From the IMG/VR virus record IMGVR_UViG_3300035492_000181: 35,099 nucleotides of DNA, one strand, 5' to 3'. The notes under the pieces were generated by a model. That model did no database searches. It saw only the letters and a list, made by a program, of their open reading frames with translations, and was not told where the DNA came from. The translations under genes and the position numbers were made by a program. Source of the stretch: a virus. The first letter of the stretch is position 1, and each line of letters opens with the position of its first letter. Shown piece by piece: positions 3,865 to 11,715 of the stretch.

Positions 3865-6439
3865 CTTGAAGATGGAGGTGATCCTCCAGGCCATTGACCG
3901 AGCCACCCGGCCGATCCGCGCCATCACCCAGGGGAGCGTCGGCCTCGGCCGCGCCCTCAAGGACTCCCGCGACCAGCTCAAGACGCTGCAAGCGCAGCAG
4001 CGCGACGTCAGCAGCTGGCGTACCCTGCGCGCCGCGAGCGAGCAGACCGAAACCGCCCTGCAGGCGGCCCGCGAGCGCGTGAAGGCTCTCGGCAAGGACC
4101 TGGCCGCCACTGGCGTGCCCACCCGGCAGATGACCCGCGACCTCAAGGGCGCCATCCGCGAAGCCACCGCCCTCAAGCGGCAGCACCAGGAACAACAGGT
4201 GCAGCTCCAGGGCCTGCGCAACAAGCTCGGCGCCGCCGGCATCAGCACGCGCAACCTCAGCCAGCACGAGCGCGACCTGCGCCAACGCATCGAGCAGACC
4301 AACCAGACCATCACCGAGCAGGGCCGGCGCATGCAGCGCCTGACCGCGCAGACCAAGCAGCTCGCGATGGCCCGGGCTCAGTACGACAAGACCCAGCAGC
4401 TCGCCGGCAGCATGGCCGGCGCCGGTGCAGGCTCAGCCGCGGCAGGGGCCGCCATGGGCGTTCCGGTGCTCAGCACCGTGCAGAGCTACATGGGCTTCGA
4501 GGACGCCATGGCGGGCGTGGCCAAGCAGGTAGAAGGCGCCCGCGACGGCAATGGGCAGCTAACCAGCACCTACTTCGAGATGGCCGACGCCATCAAGGCC
4601 ATGGCCGAGCGCATCCCCATGGCCACCACCGAAATCGCCGCCCTGGTGGAAGGCGCGGCGCGCATGGGCGTGTCCGGCAAGGACAACCTGCTGGCGTTCG
4701 CCGAGGTGGCCGCCAATGCCGCCACCGCGTTCGAGCTGCCGGCCGACCAGATCGGCGAGAACCTCGCGCGCATCGCCGACCTGTACAAGATCCCGATCCA
4801 GAACGTCAGCCAGCTGGGCGACGCCATCAACTACCTGGACGACAACGCCAAGTCGAAGGGCGCGGACATCATCGAGGTGCTGCAGCGCACGGCCGGCGTC
4901 ACCGCCTCGGTGGGCATGAGCTACAAGGACGCCGCCGCCCTGGGCTCCACCTTTCTCACCCTGGGCGCCACCGCCGAGGTAGCCGGCACCGCCACCAACG
5001 CGATGATCCGCGAGCTGGCGATCGCCACACAGCAGCCCAAGCGCTTCCAGGCCGGGCTCAAGGCGCTGGGGCTCGAAGCCGAGGCGCTGCAGAGCGGCAT
5101 GGCCGAGAACGCGACGGGCACGCTGCAGCAGGTCCTGGACGCCATCAACAAGCTGCCCAAGGCCGAGCAGCTCGGCGTCACGACGCAGCTGTTCGGCAAG
5201 GAGTTCGGCGACGACGCCGCCAAGCTGGCCCAGAACATCGGCGAGTACCGCCGTCAGCTGGACATGGCCAACTCCACCGCCGGCTCAGGCTCCATGCAAC
5301 GCGAAGCGGACATCCGCGCGGAGTTGATATCGGCGCGCATGGACATGGCCAAGAACCGGGCCTTTAACCTCTCGGCCACCCTGGGCGAGACCCTGCGCCC
5401 CACGCTGGTGGAGCTGTTCGAGAGCTTCAACAGCGTGATCGGCCGCGTGACCGACTGGGTCAAGGCCAACCCGGAACTCGCCGGGCAGATCATCAAGACC
5501 GTGGCCGGCGTGGCAGCGCTGGCCGCTGGGTTCGGCGCCGTCACCCTGGGCCTGGCCAGCTTCCTCGGCCCGTTCGCCATGGCGCGCTACGCGCTGACGC
5601 TGTTCGGCATCAAGGGCGCGAGCCTGGGTACCGTTCTGCTCAACCTGGGCAAGGCCGTGCTGCCAATGGTGGGCAAGGCGATCCTGTTCATCGGTCGCGC
5701 GCTGATGATGAACCCCATCGGCCTGGCGGTGACCGCCATCGCGGCCTCGGCCTACCTGATCTATCGCAACTGGGAGCCGGTCAAGGCGTTCTTCCTCGGC
5801 CTGTGGGCGGAGATCAAGCAGGGCTTCGCCGGCGGCCTCACCGGCATCGCCACGCTGATCCTCAACTTCTCACCGCAGGGGCTGTTCTACCGCGCCTTCG
5901 CCGGCCTGATGAGCTACTTCGGCGTGGAGTTGCCAGCCAAGTTCTCCGACTTCGGCGGCATGCTCCTGGACGGCCTGGTAAACGGCATCAAGAACAAGCT
6001 CGGCGCCGTTAAGGCTGCGATCGGCGGCGTCGGCGACAGCACCGTCGGCTGGTTCAAGGAGAAGCTCGGCATCCACTCGCCGTCGCGCGTGTTCGCCGAG
6101 CTGGGCGGCTTCACCATGCAGGGCCTGGAGCAGGGGCTGGTGGGCGGCCAGGGCGGCCCGCTGGGCGCGGTCACCGCCATGGCCAAGCAACTGGCAGCAG
6201 CCGGGGCCGTCAGCTTCGGCATGAGCGGCCCGGCAATGGCCATGGACAACCGCCCGGCGCTATCAGCCGCAGCGAGCAGCGCGCCTATGGTGGTCCAGGG
6301 CGACACCTACCAGATCACCATCCACGCGGCGCCCGGTACCGACACCGCGGGCCTGCGCCAGATGTTCAACCAGCTACTGGACGAGCGCGAGCGCGGCAAG
6401 GCTGCCCGCGTGCGCTCGGCCCTCGGCGACCAGGAGTAA
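3854..6439 (+). CDS. T: Tail tape measure protein
   Basis: 861 aa. Coiled-coil N-terminus, Gly/Ala-rich hydrophobic central region, and position after E/E'. Confidence 0.95.
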   Translation: MANDLKMEVILQAIDRATRPIRAITQGSVGLGRALKDSRDQLKTLQAQQRDVSSWRTLRAASEQTETALQAARERVKALGKDLAATGVPTRQMTRDLKGAIREATALKRQHQEQQVQLQGLRNKLGAAGISTRNLSQHERDLRQRIEQTNQTITEQGRRMQRLTAQTKQLAMARAQYDKTQQLAGSMAGAGAGSAAAGAAMGVPVLSTVQSYMGFEDAMAGVAKQVEGARDGNGQLTSTYFEMADAIKAMAERIPMATTEIAALVEGAARMGVSGKDNLLAFAEVAANAATAFELPADQIGENLARIADLYKIPIQNVSQLGDAINYLDDNAKSKGADIIEVLQRTAGVTASVGMSYKDAAALGSTFLTLGATAEVAGTATNAMIRELAIATQQPKRFQAGLKALGLEAEALQSGMAENATGTLQQVLDAINKLPKAEQLGVTTQLFGKEFGDDAAKLAQNIGEYRRQLDMANSTAGSGSMQREADIRAELISARMDMAKNRAFNLSATLGETLRPTLVELFESFNSVIGRVTDWVKANPELAGQIIKTVAGVAALAAGFGAVTLGLASFLGPFAMARYALTLFGIKGASLGTVLLNLGKAVLPMVGKAILFIGRALMMNPIGLAVTAIAASAYLIYRNWEPVKAFFLGLWAEIKQGFAGGLTGIATLILNFSPQGLFYRAFAGLMSYFGVELPAKFSDFGGMLLDGLVNGIKNKLGAVKAAIGGVGDSTVGWFKEKLGIHSPSRVFAELGGFTMQGLEQGLVGGQGGPLGAVTAMAKQLAAAGAVSFGMSGPAMAMDNRPALSAAASSAPMVVQGDTYQITIHAAPGTDTAGLRQMFNQLLDERERGKAARVRSALGDQE

Positions 6440-6886: not shown

Positions 6887-8142
6887 GCCTGCTCAGCCAA
6901 GCCGGCGCGCTGCTCGGTGACGCGGCCAACCACTACCGCGAGGCGACGTCCTACCCCAAGCCGATCTGCCGCGTGGTGGTCAACGGCCGCGACATCACCC
7001 TCGACATCGAGCAGCGCCTGGTCAGCATCGAGCTGACCGACAACCGCGGCATGGAGGCCGACCAGCTCGACATCACCCTCAGCGACCACGACGGGCTGCT
7101 GGCCATCCCGCCCCGGGGCGCCACCGTGCGCCTCTGGCTGGGCTGGAGCGATACCGGCCTGGTCGACAAGGGCAGCTACACCGTGGACGAGACCGAGCAC
7201 AGCGGCGCGCCGGACGTGCTCAGCATCCGCGCCCGCAGCGCGGACCTGCGCGGCGGCCTCAAGGTCAAGCGCGAACGCAGCTGGGACGGTGCCACCCTCG
7301 GCGCCGTCATCGCCTCGATCGCCGCGGCCCATGGCCTGGCACCCGTGGTCAGCCCCATCCTGGCGGCCATCGAGCTGCTGCACCTGGACCAGGCCAACGA
7401 GAGCGACGCCAACCTGCTGAGCCGCCTGGGCCTGCAACACGACGCCATCAGCACGGTGAAGGCCGGCCGCCTGCTGTTCATGCCGGCCGGCAAGAGCACC
7501 ACCGCCAGCGGCCTGAGCCTGCCCCACGTCACCCTCACCCGGGCCGACGGCGACCAGCACCGCTTCCTGCAGGCCGACCGCGACAGCTACACCGGCGTCA
7601 AGGCGTACTACTACGAGATCAACAGCGCGGAGAAGAAGGAGGCCATCGCCGGCGGCGGCGACAACCTCAAGGAGCTGCGCCACAGCTACACCGACCAGGC
7701 CAGCGCCCTGCGCGCCGCCCGCGCCGAGTGGGGCCGCCTGCAGCGCGGTACCGCCACGCTCAGCTACACGCTGGCCAAGGGGCGCCCGGAGTTGACCCCC
7801 GACCAGACCTACAGCCTGCTCGGCATCAAGGCCGAGATCGCGGCCATCGTCTGGCTGGGCGGCAACCTGCACCACAGCTTCACGCCGGACAGCTACACCA
7901 CCAGCCTGGAGCTGGAATCCAAGCTGCCCGACGGCGATGACGTGGATCTGCTGGCCGACCACGACGGCGACTACACCGGCGTGGTTGCCTGGTACCGCGA
8001 CGAGAAAACAGGCGAGCAGAAGAAACTCACCGCCGGCGATCAGACCAAGCCCAAGCGCCTGACGAACCTCTACGCGAGCAAGGCCAATGCCCAGCGGGCG
8101 GTGGATCGAGAGTTGAAGCGGTTGCAGGAATCGCGGACATAA
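6883..8142 (+). CDS. D: Tail protein / late control protein gpD (GTG start, GTGA overlap with U)
   Basis: 419 aa. The KPICRVVVNGRDITLDIEQRLVSIELTDNRGMEADQLDITLSD motif is typical of gpD. It is the last gene of the tail operon. Confidence 0.9.
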   Translation: MSLLSQAGALLGDAANHYREATSYPKPICRVVVNGRDITLDIEQRLVSIELTDNRGMEADQLDITLSDHDGLLAIPPRGATVRLWLGWSDTGLVDKGSYTVDETEHSGAPDVLSIRARSADLRGGLKVKRERSWDGATLGAVIASIAAAHGLAPVVSPILAAIELLHLDQANESDANLLSRLGLQHDAISTVKAGRLLFMPAGKSTTASGLSLPHVTLTRADGDQHRFLQADRDSYTGVKAYYYEINSAEKKEAIAGGGDNLKELRHSYTDQASALRAARAEWGRLQRGTATLSYTLAKGRPELTPDQTYSLLGIKAEIAAIVWLGGNLHHSFTPDSYTTSLELESKLPDGDDVDLLADHDGDYTGVVAWYRDEKTGEQKKLTAGDQTKPKRLTNLYASKANAQRAVDRELKRLQESRT

Positions 8143-8143
8143 A

Positions 8144-8166
8144 AAGGGCGCCACTTGGGCGCCCTT
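8144..8166. terminator. Bidirectional stem-loop terminator between gene D and the minus-strand cargo operon
   Basis: AAGGGCGCC-ACTTG-GGCGCCCTT, a perfect 9-bp stem. The A-run at 8141-8145 supplies a U-tract for minus-strand transcripts. Confidence 0.7.
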
Positions 8167-8183
8167 ACGGTTTGAGATAATTG

Positions 8184-9020
8184 TTAGTGCAGCCTTTGAA
8201 TGCCTGCGGCTTCTTCCATGCGCTGAATGTAATCCACCTTGTCCTTCTGGCTGCGCAGGTTGAATATGAAGTCCGACCCCTCGCTCAGAAGATCAATAGC
8301 TTCGGATTTATCTTTTTCATCTGCCGCACTAGCCGAGTAAACCGCATAGCACTTTGTTTCTTTGCCAAGCTCTAGCTTTGCCTTTGCCATAACAAACGAC
8401 TTGAGCCCGGCTTCTTTGAACTTAACCGACGCATCACGCGCACCAAGATCGATTGTTTCAGTGATGTGGTAAACACCGTTCTTTAATGCGAAGTCAGCGC
8501 GCAAGCTGGACTTCTCGGAGATCGGGAACTTCTCGACGATACGGTGGTTGAAAATATCGTCTACAGAGTCACTGAACAGGTCGTGCTGGCGGAAGATGCT
8601 GCGTAGGTTAGTAATTATGCGTGCGCCGCGCTCTCTGGTGATGACCGGGCGAGGCGGGATCACCAACTCATTCATCAATAGGCTGATTTTTAAGTTCGCT
8701 TCTTCTCTAGTTGCCGCACTGAAACAACCCAAAGTGCTTAACTGATAAGAATCAGGCAATATTAATTTTAGAAATTCAAATCTACTTTCTATTTCTTGGC
8801 TCTCCGGCACGCTTTTACTGAATATCTTTTGCAGCATGGACTCGATATTCTTCAAATCGTTTCCGGAAATTGCACCATCTACGGCGCGAATCTTTCTAAT
8901 AGATTCGCATAGATTTACGACAATGGAGTCAGGCATAAACGCAACCAGACCAATATTAATGGTCTCATTGCGCTTACGGTCGGGCGTGAATTGTATAAGG
9001 CTGTATTTAATAATATTCAT
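8184..9020 (-). CDS. DUF3037-like protein with an unassigned C-terminal half
   Basis: ATG at 9020-9018 overlaps the upstream stop (TGATG). The N-terminus YSLIQFTPDRKRNETINIGLVAF resembles the DUF3037 signature. The gene is clearly AT-rich relative to the phage backbone. Confidence 0.65.
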   Translation of the reverse strand: MNIIKYSLIQFTPDRKRNETINIGLVAFMPDSIVVNLCESIRKIRAVDGAISGNDLKNIESMLQKIFSKSVPESQEIESRFEFLKLILPDSYQLSTLGCFSAATREEANLKISLLMNELVIPPRPVITRERGARIITNLRSIFRQHDLFSDSVDDIFNHRIVEKFPISEKSSLRADFALKNGVYHITETIDLGARDASVKFKEAGLKSFVMAKAKLELGKETKCYAVYSASAADEKDKSEAIDLLSEGSDFIFNLRSQKDKVDYIQRMEEAAGIQRLH

Positions 9021-9760
9021 CACTTAAGCGCCCCCTTGATCGTCTCGCAGCGGATGGCCCGTGCATCACTCTTCCACCAGGCCACTGCTGTCGCCACATC
9101 AACACCGTGCTGCCACTCTCCCGGCATGGCGCCTACCGGACCGTCGATCCAGTCAGCTGGCAAGCCCTGAATCGCATTGAGCACCTTCTCTGCTGAAGCA
9201 AGATCGAAGCCATACAGTGTATCCAGAAACGTTCTCACCTGCCTTGTTTTGCTTTCAGGCGTGAGATACAGATCAAGCGCTGCCCCGTGAGCCAACCAGG
9301 CGAGGCTGTAATCGAAAGCCAGCATCACTACGCCCTCCAGGCTTGTCCTGAACAGCAGGTTTTTAAGATGCCTGTCGCTGTTGTTCACAAACATATCGAA
9401 AGCGTAGATGGCTGAAAGCCGCTCGCGCAGGTTAAGAATGCGCTTGTCCATTTCTCCGGACGCCAGTTCCATCACGCATTGGTCAGCATCCAGCGTTCCG
9501 CCCTCGATCCTTGATCCGAACCACATCCGACCATCCAGCCCGTGCAAAATTTCCATCGGTGGAGTGTGGATCCGGCAGGTGTTGGAAAGATGACCGCACA
9601 ACCACTCGGTAGCCGGCACGAACTCCGCACCAGGAGCGACCTGCTTGAAGGCATAGTCGAGGCCATCGTCACACTTACAGAAACCGCCCGCGTGGAACGT
9701 CCCGGCTTTCTGCGGGTAGACGTTCTCGACGTTCAGCTTGACCAGGTTCTGTTGAATCAA
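9020..9760 (-). CDS. Short HipA-like serine/threonine kinase (core kinase domain only; TTG start inferred)
   Basis: YAFKQ lysine, catalytic loop FVNNSDRHLKN and LAFDYS Mg-binding Asp. GGGAG lies 9 nt upstream of TTG 9760, and there is no in-frame ATG until residue 69. Confidence 0.7.
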   Translation of the reverse strand: MIQQNLVKLNVENVYPQKAGTFHAGGFCKCDDGLDYAFKQVAPGAEFVPATEWLCGHLSNTCRIHTPPMEILHGLDGRMWFGSRIEGGTLDADQCVMELASGEMDKRILNLRERLSAIYAFDMFVNNSDRHLKNLLFRTSLEGVVMLAFDYSLAWLAHGAALDLYLTPESKTRQVRTFLDTLYGFDLASAEKVLNAIQGLPADWIDGPVGAMPGEWQHGVDVATAVAWWKSDARAIRCETIKGALK

Positions 9761-9814
9761 GGGGTACTGCTCCCTGCTCTGCTCCGGCGACTTCTTACGC
9801 GATCAGCATTTCCA

Positions 9815-10459
9815 TCATCCGAACAACGCGCGCTGCCAGTGGTCTTCGCCGACGATTGCGATAGGCGCACCGGCCTCCCGCAGCTCGACGGCCTTCATGA
9901 TCTTGGTGCCGTAGGTGGCGTGCCGCCATTGGTCGTTGCCAACACTGCCAACGACCAGGTAATGGATTTTTTTGCTGACGCCACCGCCTATCACACCGCC
10001 GCGCTCGAGGATCAGCTCCTCACACGCCTTGCGCGGGCCATAGGCCATGGTGCCGGTGAATACGAAAGCCTTGTCCTGGAACACCAGCTCAGGGGCGGGA
10101 AGATTGAACGGCAAGTCCGTCGGCGCGGTGAAGGCCTGGGCGGTTTGCTCCGGCTTGCTGACATCAAGCCCGGCGAAGCTGTGCAGTAGATGCATCAGAT
10201 CGGCCGATTCGTCGGCATCTAGCACGCCGTCCTGCAGCATGGCGCTGATGCGCCGGTAGAGCAGGTTGACTACGGGATCCTCAAGGTGGGCCAGGTTGCT
10301 TTCGATCCAGCCCTTGAGGAAGCGCGCCTCGTCGATGTTCACCACGCCATCCGCAACCACGCCGGCGGCGAGGCCCACCAGAGCATCGGCGCTGCGCCGA
10401 TCAATGCGGGCTTCGTTGAAGAAACGGCTGGAGGTGAATTCCAGATGCAGGTCGACCAT
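9815..10459 (-). CDS. TerB-like N-terminal domain fused to a C-terminal BRCT domain
   Basis: ADGVVNIDEARFL and QDGVLDADESADL motifs in the N-terminal half. C-terminal FQDKAFVFTGTMAYGPRKACEELILERGGVIGGGVSKKIHYLVVG resembles the LigA BRCT domain. AAAGGAG RBS before the ATG. Confidence 0.7.
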   Translation of the reverse strand: MVDLHLEFTSSRFFNEARIDRRSADALVGLAAGVVADGVVNIDEARFLKGWIESNLAHLEDPVVNLLYRRISAMLQDGVLDADESADLMHLLHSFAGLDVSKPEQTAQAFTAPTDLPFNLPAPELVFQDKAFVFTGTMAYGPRKACEELILERGGVIGGGVSKKIHYLVVGSVGNDQWRHATYGTKIMKAVELREAGAPIAIVGEDHWQRALFG

Positions 10460-10516
10460 TCAGAGCTCCTTTCAGACCAGGCGGGGTCTGCAGTTCCATT
10501 GAGAGTGGTTGGTGGG

Positions 10517-10864
10517 CTAGGGCTTGTCCGCCAGCGGTGACTTGCCGCTGGCGCTGGCGATAGAGGACGAGAGCAACAGAAAGGCATCCTGCTGTTGCTT
10601 GGGCATGTTCCGGAAGGCTTCAAGCAGCTGGGCTTCATGGTTGTCGAGGCCGGCCGCGGCCTGTTCAACACGCACGCCAGTAACCACATAAAGCACATCG
10701 ACGCCCGTCTGAGCCACAGCAGCTAGGTACCTGCCATCAGGGCTCCCCGCACCTTTTTCGTAGTTGATCTGCGTCGTTTTGCCCACGCCGCCGATCGCAC
10801 CGAGATCGGTTTGGCTGAGTTTCAGGCGCGACCGTTCTTCCTTCAGCCGCTCGCCAATGGTCAT
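10517..10864 (-). CDS. Prophage repressor, XRE/CI-type HTH (functional equivalent of P2 C)
   Basis: MTIGERLKEERSRLKLSQTDLGAIGGVGKTTQINYEKG is a classic HTH_3 motif. GAGG lies 9 nt before ATG 10864. The gene is divergent from the early operon. Confidence 0.8.
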   Translation of the reverse strand: MTIGERLKEERSRLKLSQTDLGAIGGVGKTTQINYEKGAGSPDGRYLAAVAQTGVDVLYVVTGVRVEQAAAGLDNHEAQLLEAFRNMPKQQQDAFLLLSSSIASASGKSPLADKP

Positions 10865-10867
10865 ATT

Positions 10868-10948
10868 TTTGAACCTCAAGCATTGACAGGTTCAAATAAC
10901 TGAACCAATATCCGCTTTACATCACACGAAATCGCACGAATTTGAACT
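10868..10948. promoter_or_regulatory. Immunity switch: candidate early promoter plus operator repeats
   Basis: TTGACA (10883-10888), N17, CAATAT (10906-10911). The inverted repeat GGTTCA-N6-TGAACC (10889-10906) fills the spacer. Extra half-sites TGAACC at 10870 and TGAACT at 10943. Tandem ATC(A/G)CACGAA at 10921-10940. Confidence 0.55.
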
Positions 10949-11212
10949 ATGCCGAACGGATACCCCAGCGAGCAAGCGCGCAACGCTGCGCGTGAACGCC
11001 TCAGCAAGCTCGGCCTGACCGCCAAGGAATGGGCCGAACAGAACGACATCAGCCCGTCCACGGTTTACGCCGTGCTCAACGGGCAGAAGAAGTGCCTGCG
11101 CGGTGAAGCCCACCGCGCCGCCGTACTGCTCGGCATCAAGGAAGGCGTAGTAGCCGGCGAAGCGCCGCGTTATGGGCGCCGCAAGACTGACTTCGCAGTG
11201 ATTCCAAAGTAA
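10949..11212 (+). CDS. Cro/Ner-like DNA-binding protein, first gene of the early operon (Cox/Apl position)
   Basis: 87 aa with an HTH-like LTAKEWAEQNDISPSTVYAVLNG and an Nlp/Ner-like tail RGEAHRAAVLLGIK. It is divergent from the repressor. Confidence 0.55.
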   Translation: MPNGYPSEQARNAARERLSKLGLTAKEWAEQNDISPSTVYAVLNGQKKCLRGEAHRAAVLLGIKEGVVAGEAPRYGRRKTDFAVIPK

Positions 11213-11715
11213 TGGCAAACCCCAAGGCGAGAAACGAGAAGATGAAGCACCCGATCCTCGACAGCCGGCGCAAGGTGGTCAGCGCCATCATCGCCGCATA
11301 CCCCGGCGGCCGTGACTGCGCCGCGGCCCGCCTGGGCCTGGAAATCAAGAAGTTCGACAACCACGCCTACGAAAGCGCCGGCCACCGCCCGCTGACCGAC
11401 GAGCAGATCCTGCTGCTCGAACAACAGATCGGCACGGCCTACCTGCCCGAGTACATCGCCGCCCAGTACGGCGGTGTGTTCGTCCCGCTGCCAGCCGCCG
11501 AAGAGCTGGACAACATGGAGCTCTACCACCGCGCCGTGGATACCGCGAAGCGCCGCGGCCGGGTTGACCTAATCATCGCCAAGGCCCTGGAGGACGGAGC
11601 GATCGACGAAGGCGAAGCCAACGCCATCCTCGATGCCCACCGCCGCTACGTCTCTGCCCGCCACGCGGAGATAGCGGCAGTCATCGTTCTGCATACCTGC
11701 AACGACAAAAAATAA
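11212..11715 (+). CDS. Phage regulatory protein, CII (CP76)-like
   Basis: TAATG overlap with the upstream gene. Size, position and overall sequence resemble Phage_CP76-type regulators, judged by eye only. Confidence 0.55.
   Translation: MANPKARNEKMKHPILDSRRKVVSAIIAAYPGGRDCAAARLGLEIKKFDNHAYESAGHRPLTDEQILLLEQQIGTAYLPEYIAAQYGGVFVPLPAAEELDNMELYHRAVDTAKRRGRVDLIIAKALEDGAIDEGEANAILDAHRRYVSARHAEIAAVIVLHTCNDKK

Follow-up and report, generated by a model that had tools for sequence, protein, structure and literature searches.

The locus examined here raises the question of whether a small protein encoded between the immunity repressor and a HipA-like kinase of a prophage acts together with that kinase, as had been proposed in a preliminary description of the DNA, or whether it belongs to a different system altogether. 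The window, by which we mean the entire 35,099-nucleotide stretch of viral DNA that was analyzed (IMG/VR record IMGVR_UViG_3300035492_000181), is a P2-like prophage, with genes for gpD, gpU, the tape measure, sheath and tube proteins, an Ogr/Delta-like protein and a Toprim primase. The part of the window that bears on the question contains the following features:

10949-11212, plus strand: cro-like gene, divergent from the repressor gene
10517-10879, minus strand: gene for the HTH immunity repressor (120 aa), which opens the leftward (lysogenic) unit (HTH_3/HTH_31 and DicA/RstR-type NCBIfam matches)
10466-10472, minus strand: Shine-Dalgarno sequence AAAGGAG, 6 nt 5' of the ATG of the following gene (read directly from the sequence)
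9815-10459, minus strand: open reading frame with an ATG start for a 214-aa two-domain protein of the PHROG 3989 family, annotated as "BRCT domain-containing protein"
9020-9760, minus strand: HipA_2-type kinase with a TTG start, the toxin of a HipAD/DS-6/PDC-M66-type pair (PF20613 at E 5.8e-9, PDC-M66A, phrog_3162)
8184-9023, minus strand: DUF3037 protein, the antitoxin that partners the kinase, with a start overlapping the kinase stop (PF11236 at E 2.4e-6, PDC-M66B at E 7e-7, phrog_5137)
8166-8144, minus strand: intrinsic terminator directly after the DUF3037 gene, closing the leftward unit (9-bp stem with 7 GC pairs, then a T run)

The gene at 9815-10459, hereafter the BRCT gene, bears out its initial description in all basic particulars: the open reading frame, its ATG and length of 214 aa, the AAAGGAG ribosome binding site, the C-terminal segment quoted at the time, and the two (A)DG-x4-(D/E)E motifs of the product (VVADGVVNIDEARFL at aa 34-48 and LQDGVLDADESADL at aa 75-88) are all present. 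The spacer between its stop codon and the kinase TTG start at 9760 measures 54 nt, as had been claimed, and a consensus scan agrees with the earlier observation that this gap lacks a terminator, as it detects no terminator-like hairpin anywhere between the repressor, the BRCT gene and the kinase; the terminator at 8166-8144 is the only strong one on the minus strand within 8000-11300. The BRCT gene is likely to be cotranscribed with its neighbors. Among these genes the GC content falls stepwise from 0.623 in the BRCT gene to 0.590 in the repressor, 0.564 in the kinase and 0.456 in the DUF3037 gene (tail gene D has 0.694 and the primase 0.657), and the suggestion that the BRCT gene has resided here longer than the low-GC kinase pair has held up (0.623 versus 0.564 and 0.456). 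The kinase and the DUF3037 protein match the PADLOC profiles PDC-M66A and PDC-M66B, respectively, at weak to moderate strength. The window repressor is of the HTH-only type, with no S24 domain found by Pfam or NCBIfam profiles.

The product of the BRCT gene divides into three segments:

10169-10459, minus strand: helical domain at the N terminus (aa 1-97), built of two helix-(A/Q)DG-x4-(D/E)E-helix repeats (AF2 model, conserved columns)
10094-10168, minus strand: variable low-confidence linker (aa 98-122), with pLDDT below 50 at residues 101-113 and poorly conserved columns
9818-10093, minus strand: single BRCT domain (aa 123-214), belonging to the RFC1/LigA class (Pfam, PDB profile alignment, Foldseek, invariant columns)

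The C-terminal domain is a BRCT domain, with a similarity better than chance, and several lines of analysis concur with the initial call. Pfam profile PF00533 matches the window protein at 22.8 bits (E 1.1e-4) against a gathering cut-off of 21.3 bits, and it also matches 54 of 79 diverse family members, with a best E value of 1.1e-9. When a profile of the family was compared to the PDB, the RFC1 p140 BRCT domain was matched at E 7e-9 and LigA BRCT domains at 6e-7 to 3e-4, with the BRCT domains of TopBP1 and Rad4 included among the weaker matches. An AlphaFold (AF2) model built on 79 sequences (pLDDT 86) exhibits the BRCT order beta-alpha-beta-beta-alpha-beta-alpha, with strands at 131-135, 167-170 and 201-204 and helices at 143-152, 182-195 and 205-213. 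Foldseek assigns this model a probability of 1.0 to many BRCT domains, with those of RFC1 p140 (2ebu/2k7f, 30% identity, rmsd 2.6-2.9) and LigA as its top matches. Across 79 sequences of 31-72% identity, T135, G136, R143, G171, W178, K186 and E205 are invariant, as is W208, the alpha3 Trp of the BRCT fold, among close relatives.

Both in sequence and in fold, the single BRCT domains of RFC1 p140 (2ebu/2k6g/2k7f) and LigA are the closest known relatives of this domain. In the PDB profile alignment, its T-G-x6-R segment (FvfTG...R) falls upon FVITG...R of RFC1, the segment that includes T415, G416 and R423. Contacts of these three RFC1 residues with the 5'-phosphate of dsDNA were reportedly described by Kobayashi et al. 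in 2006 and 2010, and the F-V-x-T-G-x6-R of the window protein fits them. K186 may be the equivalent of the alpha2 lysine of RFC1, K458, judging by the order of secondary structure elements rather than by superposition. Several distinctions are also evident: the window protein has neither a clamp-loader nor a ligase catalytic module, its beta3-alpha2 loop is longer and includes the invariant Trp178, and the fusion partner of its BRCT domain is a small, acidic domain of helical repeats. A Thr/Arg/Lys triad is found in phosphopeptide-binding single BRCT domains as well.

The N-terminal repeat domain is acidic and is modeled by AF2 as a four-helix domain composed of two similar hairpins (helices 5-35, 42-55, 62-74 and 82-96), in which G29, D37 and E44 are invariant among the 79 sequences and W51, R70, D77, E84 and L88 are nearly so. 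It had been likened to the TerB/DjlA-N domain (PF05099, in a clan with DUF533), and both are indeed helical with repeated (A)DG-x4-E motifs. However, the likeness does not extend beyond these motifs, as the window protein yields neither a significant profile match nor a significant profile-profile match. Pfam contains no TerB (PF05099) match to it even at E<=1, and a profile search of the PDB returned no sequence match for the N-terminal domain. hhalign comparisons to the DjlA TerB domain, for which the templates were E. coli DjlA alone and a 24-sequence DjlA alignment of low diversity, gave probabilities of 2-4% over a single 21-column motif. When N-terminal domains were searched in isolation, 8 of 45 produced sub-threshold matches to PF05099 (best E 0.002) and 7 of 45 to DUF533; an unrelated SHOCT-like motif was likewise matched by 7 of 45, about as many as PF05099. 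Fold searches with the full protein return lists dominated by BRCT matches. A TerB identity was consequently set aside: the label lacks profile support, with nothing from Pfam at E<=1 and at most 4% from hhalign, although a remote homology may exist, given the low diversity of the template alignment.

As a whole, the gene adds a new member to an already known, though uncharacterized, family, PHROG 3989, which carries no assigned function. Residues 1-214 of its product align to profile positions 86-294 of 296 (phrog_3989, E 1.7e-75), and the first 85 positions of the profile, left unmatched, correspond to an extra repeat present in Orf2 of K139; it is because of this third hairpin that the profile is longer. 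K139 Orf2 is homologous to the window protein (28% identity, E 4e-9), shares its architecture and is likewise encoded directly after the repressor gene, differing in its third N-terminal repeat and its length of 301 aa. The family is large, with at least 486 homologs of the BRCT gene product in a first search and 546 clusters at 50% identity matching at E<1e-30. Its longer members add DEDDh/RNase_T, HIRAN, HhH and Nlig-Ia domains as well as extra BRCT domains.

In sequence databases, family members go either by the name "BRCT domain-containing protein" or by the erroneous name "NAD-dependent DNA ligase". As the preliminary description had noted, the resemblance to LigA comes without any catalytic domain: only the BRCT region of this 214-aa protein aligns (LigA model positions 584-647), the adenylation, OB, Zn-finger and HhH domains of LigA being absent, and the NCBIfam LigA scores of 28-38 bits amount to roughly one tenth of their cut-offs of 369-444. 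An identity as LigA was rejected on these grounds. A subtler version of the ligase idea would have the protein serve as an accessory, in the manner of the HhH+BRCT "subunit B" of the T5-like split ligases, helping host LigA to seal cos ends or nicks. Besides the frequent ligase name in databases, this idea can draw upon Foldseek and profile matches to ligase subunit B of phage PR1 (9hu3_B) and matches to "ligase subunit B" of Eps7 and PG07. Nevertheless, we regard it as extremely improbable, given that the window protein has no HhH domain, that no gene for a catalytic subunit is found nearby, that LigA scores remain so far below their cut-offs, that the gene resides in the lysogenic operon rather than in an early or replication operon, and that chromosomal copies are paired with another gene (X, described below).

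A second candidate identity that was considered and rejected is PDC-S48 of the PADLOC collection, which consists of a DEDDh exonuclease, a helical repeat and a BRCT domain. The window protein aligns through its last 125 aa to PDC-S48 positions 278-403 of 411 (E 8e-8), and longer, DEDDh-containing members of the family match PDC-S48 over its entire length (E 1e-42 to 5e-44). However, the alignment of the window protein is confined to 278-403, and it is devoid of the exonuclease effector. To our knowledge, PDC-S48 itself is a candidate defence gene only. In our literature searches, no functional studies of the family, PDC-S48 or K139 orf2 were found, nor any mention of PDC-S48.

Whether the BRCT gene works with the kinase can be judged from the company that each keeps. 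The preliminary description had cast the BRCT protein as a phospho-reader and third component of the kinase/DUF3037 system, such that 8184-10459 would be a three-gene writer/reader unit. The arrangement of the window is compatible with this, the genes sharing a strand with a gap of 54 nt and no terminator between. Relatives of the BRCT protein at 100, 90, 81 and 77% identity are all followed by the kinase/DUF3037 pair, with a roughly parallel divergence and different repressors upstream, and the phosphate pocket could in principle read pSer or pThr, as suggested by matches of the TopBP1/Rad4 type. Despite this, all of the trios stem from one P2-like lineage, whose members have homologous cro, orf167, primase and gpD genes, and their linkage can therefore be plain shared ancestry. 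Outside this lineage, a search for the recurrence of the gene beside HipA-like kinase/DUF3037 pairs found the pair at none of 84 genome and phage loci of the family and at none of 76 more distant, non-identical viral loci; the association is thus confined to one lineage at 77% identity or more.

Even within the lineage, each partner is encountered without the other. The BRCT gene occurs without the pair at a series of loci having other cargo (L014, L082, L108-L111, L116, L120 and L122), one of which, L014, encodes DUF6731 together with a RexB-like membrane protein in its distal slot, and in L126 and L131 it has neither pair nor cargo and abuts gpD. Conversely, L103 and L104, whose cro and primase share 96-100% identity with those of the window, encode the pair without the BRCT gene, its place being taken by genes for a secreted Cys-rich protein and a membrane protein. 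In DNA alignments of phages with and without the BRCT gene, homology begins approximately 25 nt before the kinase start, and the pair therefore carries along no promoter region. Its expression probably depends upon read-through from whatever is transcribed upstream. In L098, a gene caller reports a 4-nt overlap of the BRCT and kinase genes, with kinase homology beginning 54 nt downstream as in the window, and its kinase start is probably over-extended. A tblastn search found no kinase homologs in GenBank phages.

Published work has already established what such a pair can accomplish. In Retron-Sda1, a HipA-like kinase and a DUF3037 protein (PDC-M66) constitute a stand-alone defence, in which deletion of the kinase abolishes protection and deletion of DUF3037 is toxic; the kinase is the toxin and is neutralized by DUF3037 (PMC12548924). 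DS-6/HipAD has similarly been validated as a two-gene system dependent upon a catalytic residue of its kinase (PMC13092281). HipAD/DS-6/PDC-M66 is a physical neighbor of the BRCT gene, probably on the same transcript, but it is a two-gene system devoid of a BRCT component, with a distribution independent of the BRCT gene. Given the mixed combinations of genes and the reported autonomy of the pair, the three-gene writer/reader model is not supported and we consider it very unlikely. The kinase/DUF3037 pair is not part of the same feature as the BRCT gene; it is a self-contained, toxin-antitoxin-like defence of two genes in a variable cargo slot, extending from the immunity region to tail gene D. 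As judged by genome comparisons, the BRCT gene is genetically independent of the pair, and the fallback offered by the preliminary description, an independent factor in lysogeny or DNA damage, holds, unlike its principal proposal. More generally, these results correct an inference of guilt by adjacency, since operon membership within a cargo hotspot does not imply functional coupling, and they place a known stand-alone defence within the hotspot that separates the immunity region from gene D.

A more telling association of the family is with immunity repressors. In several unrelated temperate lineages, the family gene is located directly 3' of the immunity repressor gene or separated from it by one small gene, which in several loci of the window lineage encodes a small secreted protein. 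The D3-like siphovirus FBPa47, PG1 and Vibrio K139 all encode it 3' of the repressor on the same strand, a position that puts it in an operon expressed in lysogens; the K139 annotation gives cI-orf2-glo-int as its PL lysogenic operon, and glo is an exclusion gene. Other arrangements exist as well, as the gene follows an integrase and a lipoprotein gene in Lodos-type phages and is divergent from cII and succeeded by a thermonuclease gene in Sulfurimonas phage SNW-1. When the nearest upstream open reading frame on the same strand was classified for 161 loci, it encoded a repressor with HTH and S24 domains at 36, a short HTH repressor of the window type at 19 and a 150-aa HTH_3 repressor at 3. 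At a further 40 of the 161 it encoded "X", a protein of approximately 130 aa whose gene is 12-14 nt away.

An HMM of X placed it directly 5' of the family gene in 67 of 180 loci, among them phages of the PG1 type having the order S24 repressor, X, BRCT; the window is without X. X-BRCT pairs are also encoded in many chromosomes of the P. fluorescens/putida group, where these copies lie outside prophages. X itself yielded no matches in Pfam, PADLOC, PHROG or the PDB. A link of the pair to the SOS response was examined and rejected, as a LexA box (CTGT-N8-ACAG) was located upstream of X in 1 of the 67 loci, which is the background level. Together with this count, the housekeeping genes that flank the chromosomal X-BRCT pairs speak against their being defence-island or SOS genes.

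The repressor association invites the possibility that the protein is a DNA-damage-sensing co-regulator of the lysis-lysogeny switch, in which the BRCT domain would detect damaged DNA and help to inactivate or bypass a repressor without S24. The strongest conserved linkage of the family is to the repressor gene, with at least four unrelated repressor types represented, the window repressor is of the HTH-only kind, and the SNW-1 gene occupies the position divergent from cII. Furthermore, in Roseobacter phages, modules of cI and a BRCT protein take the place of quorum-sensing modules within the decision region, and DNA-damage sensing has been speculated for them (PMC13345283, a 2026 preprint). 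However, most partner repressors already contain S24 (36 loci; also those of PG1 and K139), chromosomal copies exist outside prophages, and L103 and L104 manage without the gene. The protein is also highly conserved both beside non-homologous repressors and beside X where there is no repressor, which argues against a specific contact with the repressor. On balance, we view a damage co-regulator of this kind as unlikely.

The same conservation bears upon what the protein might bind. The window protein is 60-70% identical to relatives, with the same invariant residues, whether these are encoded next to unrelated repressors or X and with or without the kinase, and its partner should therefore be something common to all hosts, such as DNA or a conserved host factor. 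With moderate confidence, we favor the interpretation that the protein is made in lysogens and binds DNA ends, nicks or gaps bearing a phosphate. In this scheme, the pocket formed by the invariant Thr-Gly...Arg(...Lys) would bind phosphate, and the acidic repeat domain may mediate assembly or ligand binding. The phosphate would be a 5'-phosphate at a DNA end, nick or gap rather than a product of the kinase; a DNA ligand is suggested by RFC1 and LigA as nearest neighbors in sequence and fold, as well as by the domain fusions of the family.

Two roles can be envisioned for such a DNA-end binder. Firstly, it could act on the linear DNA of incoming phages, in exclusion or defence, since genes of this type adjoin it in the window as well as in K139 and L014, and the family is related to PDC-S48. 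Secondly, it might provide an input on DNA status to the lysogeny switch, as its tightest linkage is to the repressor and modules of cI and BRCT are noted in the Roseobacter decision region (PMC13345283).

Taken further, the module of helical repeats and BRCT domain could be a widespread and unrecognized sensor of phosphate-bearing DNA ends with interchangeable partners, namely the DEDDh exonuclease of PDC-S48, the thermonuclease of SNW-1 and X in Pseudomonas chromosomes and PG1-like phages, which phages would keep beside the repressor either for the exclusion of linear genomes or for reading DNA status in the lysis-lysogeny decision. This broader proposal is speculative and we consider it unlikely; if it applied, it would define a new functional class of immunity-region gene. 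A large uncharacterized family that is often mislabeled as "NAD-dependent DNA ligase" can now be flagged, and its adjacency to repressors and pairing with X make it a reasonable target for work on prophage-conferred exclusion or induction control.

Several observations weigh against the DNA-end binder reading or the roles envisioned for it. The ligand could instead be a phosphoprotein, through the same pocket chemistry. The protein contains no effector domain, and the gene is missing from the sister phages L103 and L104. The housekeeping surroundings of the chromosomal X-BRCT pairs and their lack of LexA boxes (1 of 67) also count here, as do the S24 domains that most partner repressors already possess. 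Regarding the locus itself, the segment 8000-11300 has no DNA-level matches among GenBank phages, and a protein identical to the BRCT gene product is recorded from Stutzerimonas stutzeri.

The real partner of the BRCT family may be a protein that we term X, of ~130-150 aa, which is encoded directly 5' of the BRCT gene in 67 of the 180 loci, either at a spacing of 12-14 nt or with the two genes overlapping. Two examples, both from loci outside the window, are:

L034:5599-5988, X, upstream of the BRCT gene
L003:4607-5056 (phage PG1), X, upstream of the BRCT gene

Invariant features of X include a W, a D, and the motifs WKGG and YLAQWQGLRG, and searches of Pfam, PADLOC, PHROG and PDB with this protein returned zero matches. 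X is found in Pseudomonas chromosomes as well as in PG1-type phages, the latter having the gene order S24 repressor, X and BRCT gene. In PG1 itself (OQ504958.1), the BRCT homologue was deposited as CDS 5085-5630 under the label "NAD-dependent DNA ligase". This CDS appears to lack its N-terminus, since query residues 2-214 align by tblastn from position 5001 (L003:5001-5630). When read from 5001, the gene runs in a different frame from the upstream X gene, whose 3' end it overlaps.

A separate neighbor is evident in Sulfurimonas phage SNW-1:

L187:3393-4450, BRCT family member and thermonuclease-family gene

Here, the 207-aa family member, annotated as "DNA polymerase", heads a unit divergent from cII, and the thermonuclease-family gene lies 3 nt downstream. 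The pair resembles a sensor and a nuclease split over two genes and recalls the PADLOC candidate defence gene PDC-S48, except that DEDDh and BRCT are fused in the latter.

In two sister phages of the window, whose cro and primase are 96-100% identical to its own, the position of the BRCT gene is occupied by two different genes:

L103:3729-4931, two-gene replacement of the BRCT gene
L104:3709-4933, two-gene replacement of the BRCT gene

The first encodes a 164-166-aa protein with a signal peptide and four Cys-containing repeats, while the second encodes a membrane protein of ~234 aa (phrog_26814); both may be envelope-level exclusion genes.

The window repressor (10517-10879, minus strand) is a DicA/RstR-like, HTH-only protein of 120 aa. 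As it has no S24 peptidase domain, prophage induction probably requires an antirepressor or some other route. Across window positions 8000-11300, sigma-70-like promoter consensus matches numbered 0, versus 1.4 expected. The kinase gene (9020-9760, minus strand) has a TTG start with AGGGAG ahead of it; at its other end, the stop codon of the kinase and the start of DUF3037 overlap within GTGA at 9020-9023. The PADLOC match of this pair to the published HipAD/DS-6/PDC-M66 architecture is weak (E 5.7e-4 and 7e-7). The very low GC of the DUF3037 gene (8184-9023, minus strand; 0.456 vs 0.647 for the window) suggests a recent foreign origin.

A related Halopseudomonas P2-like prophage carries other cargo where the window holds the kinase pair:

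L014:6694-7961, DUF6731 protein and 136-aa membrane protein

The former has a weak PDC-M67A match and the latter a RexB-like PADLOC match (E 1.6e-4). Their presence in this slot fits with a hotspot for defence cargo located between immunity region and gene D. One prophage (GCA_051450785.1) is otherwise identical but has an IS66-family element (TnpB and DDE transposase; L092:10417-12357) inserted between DUF3037 and gene D.
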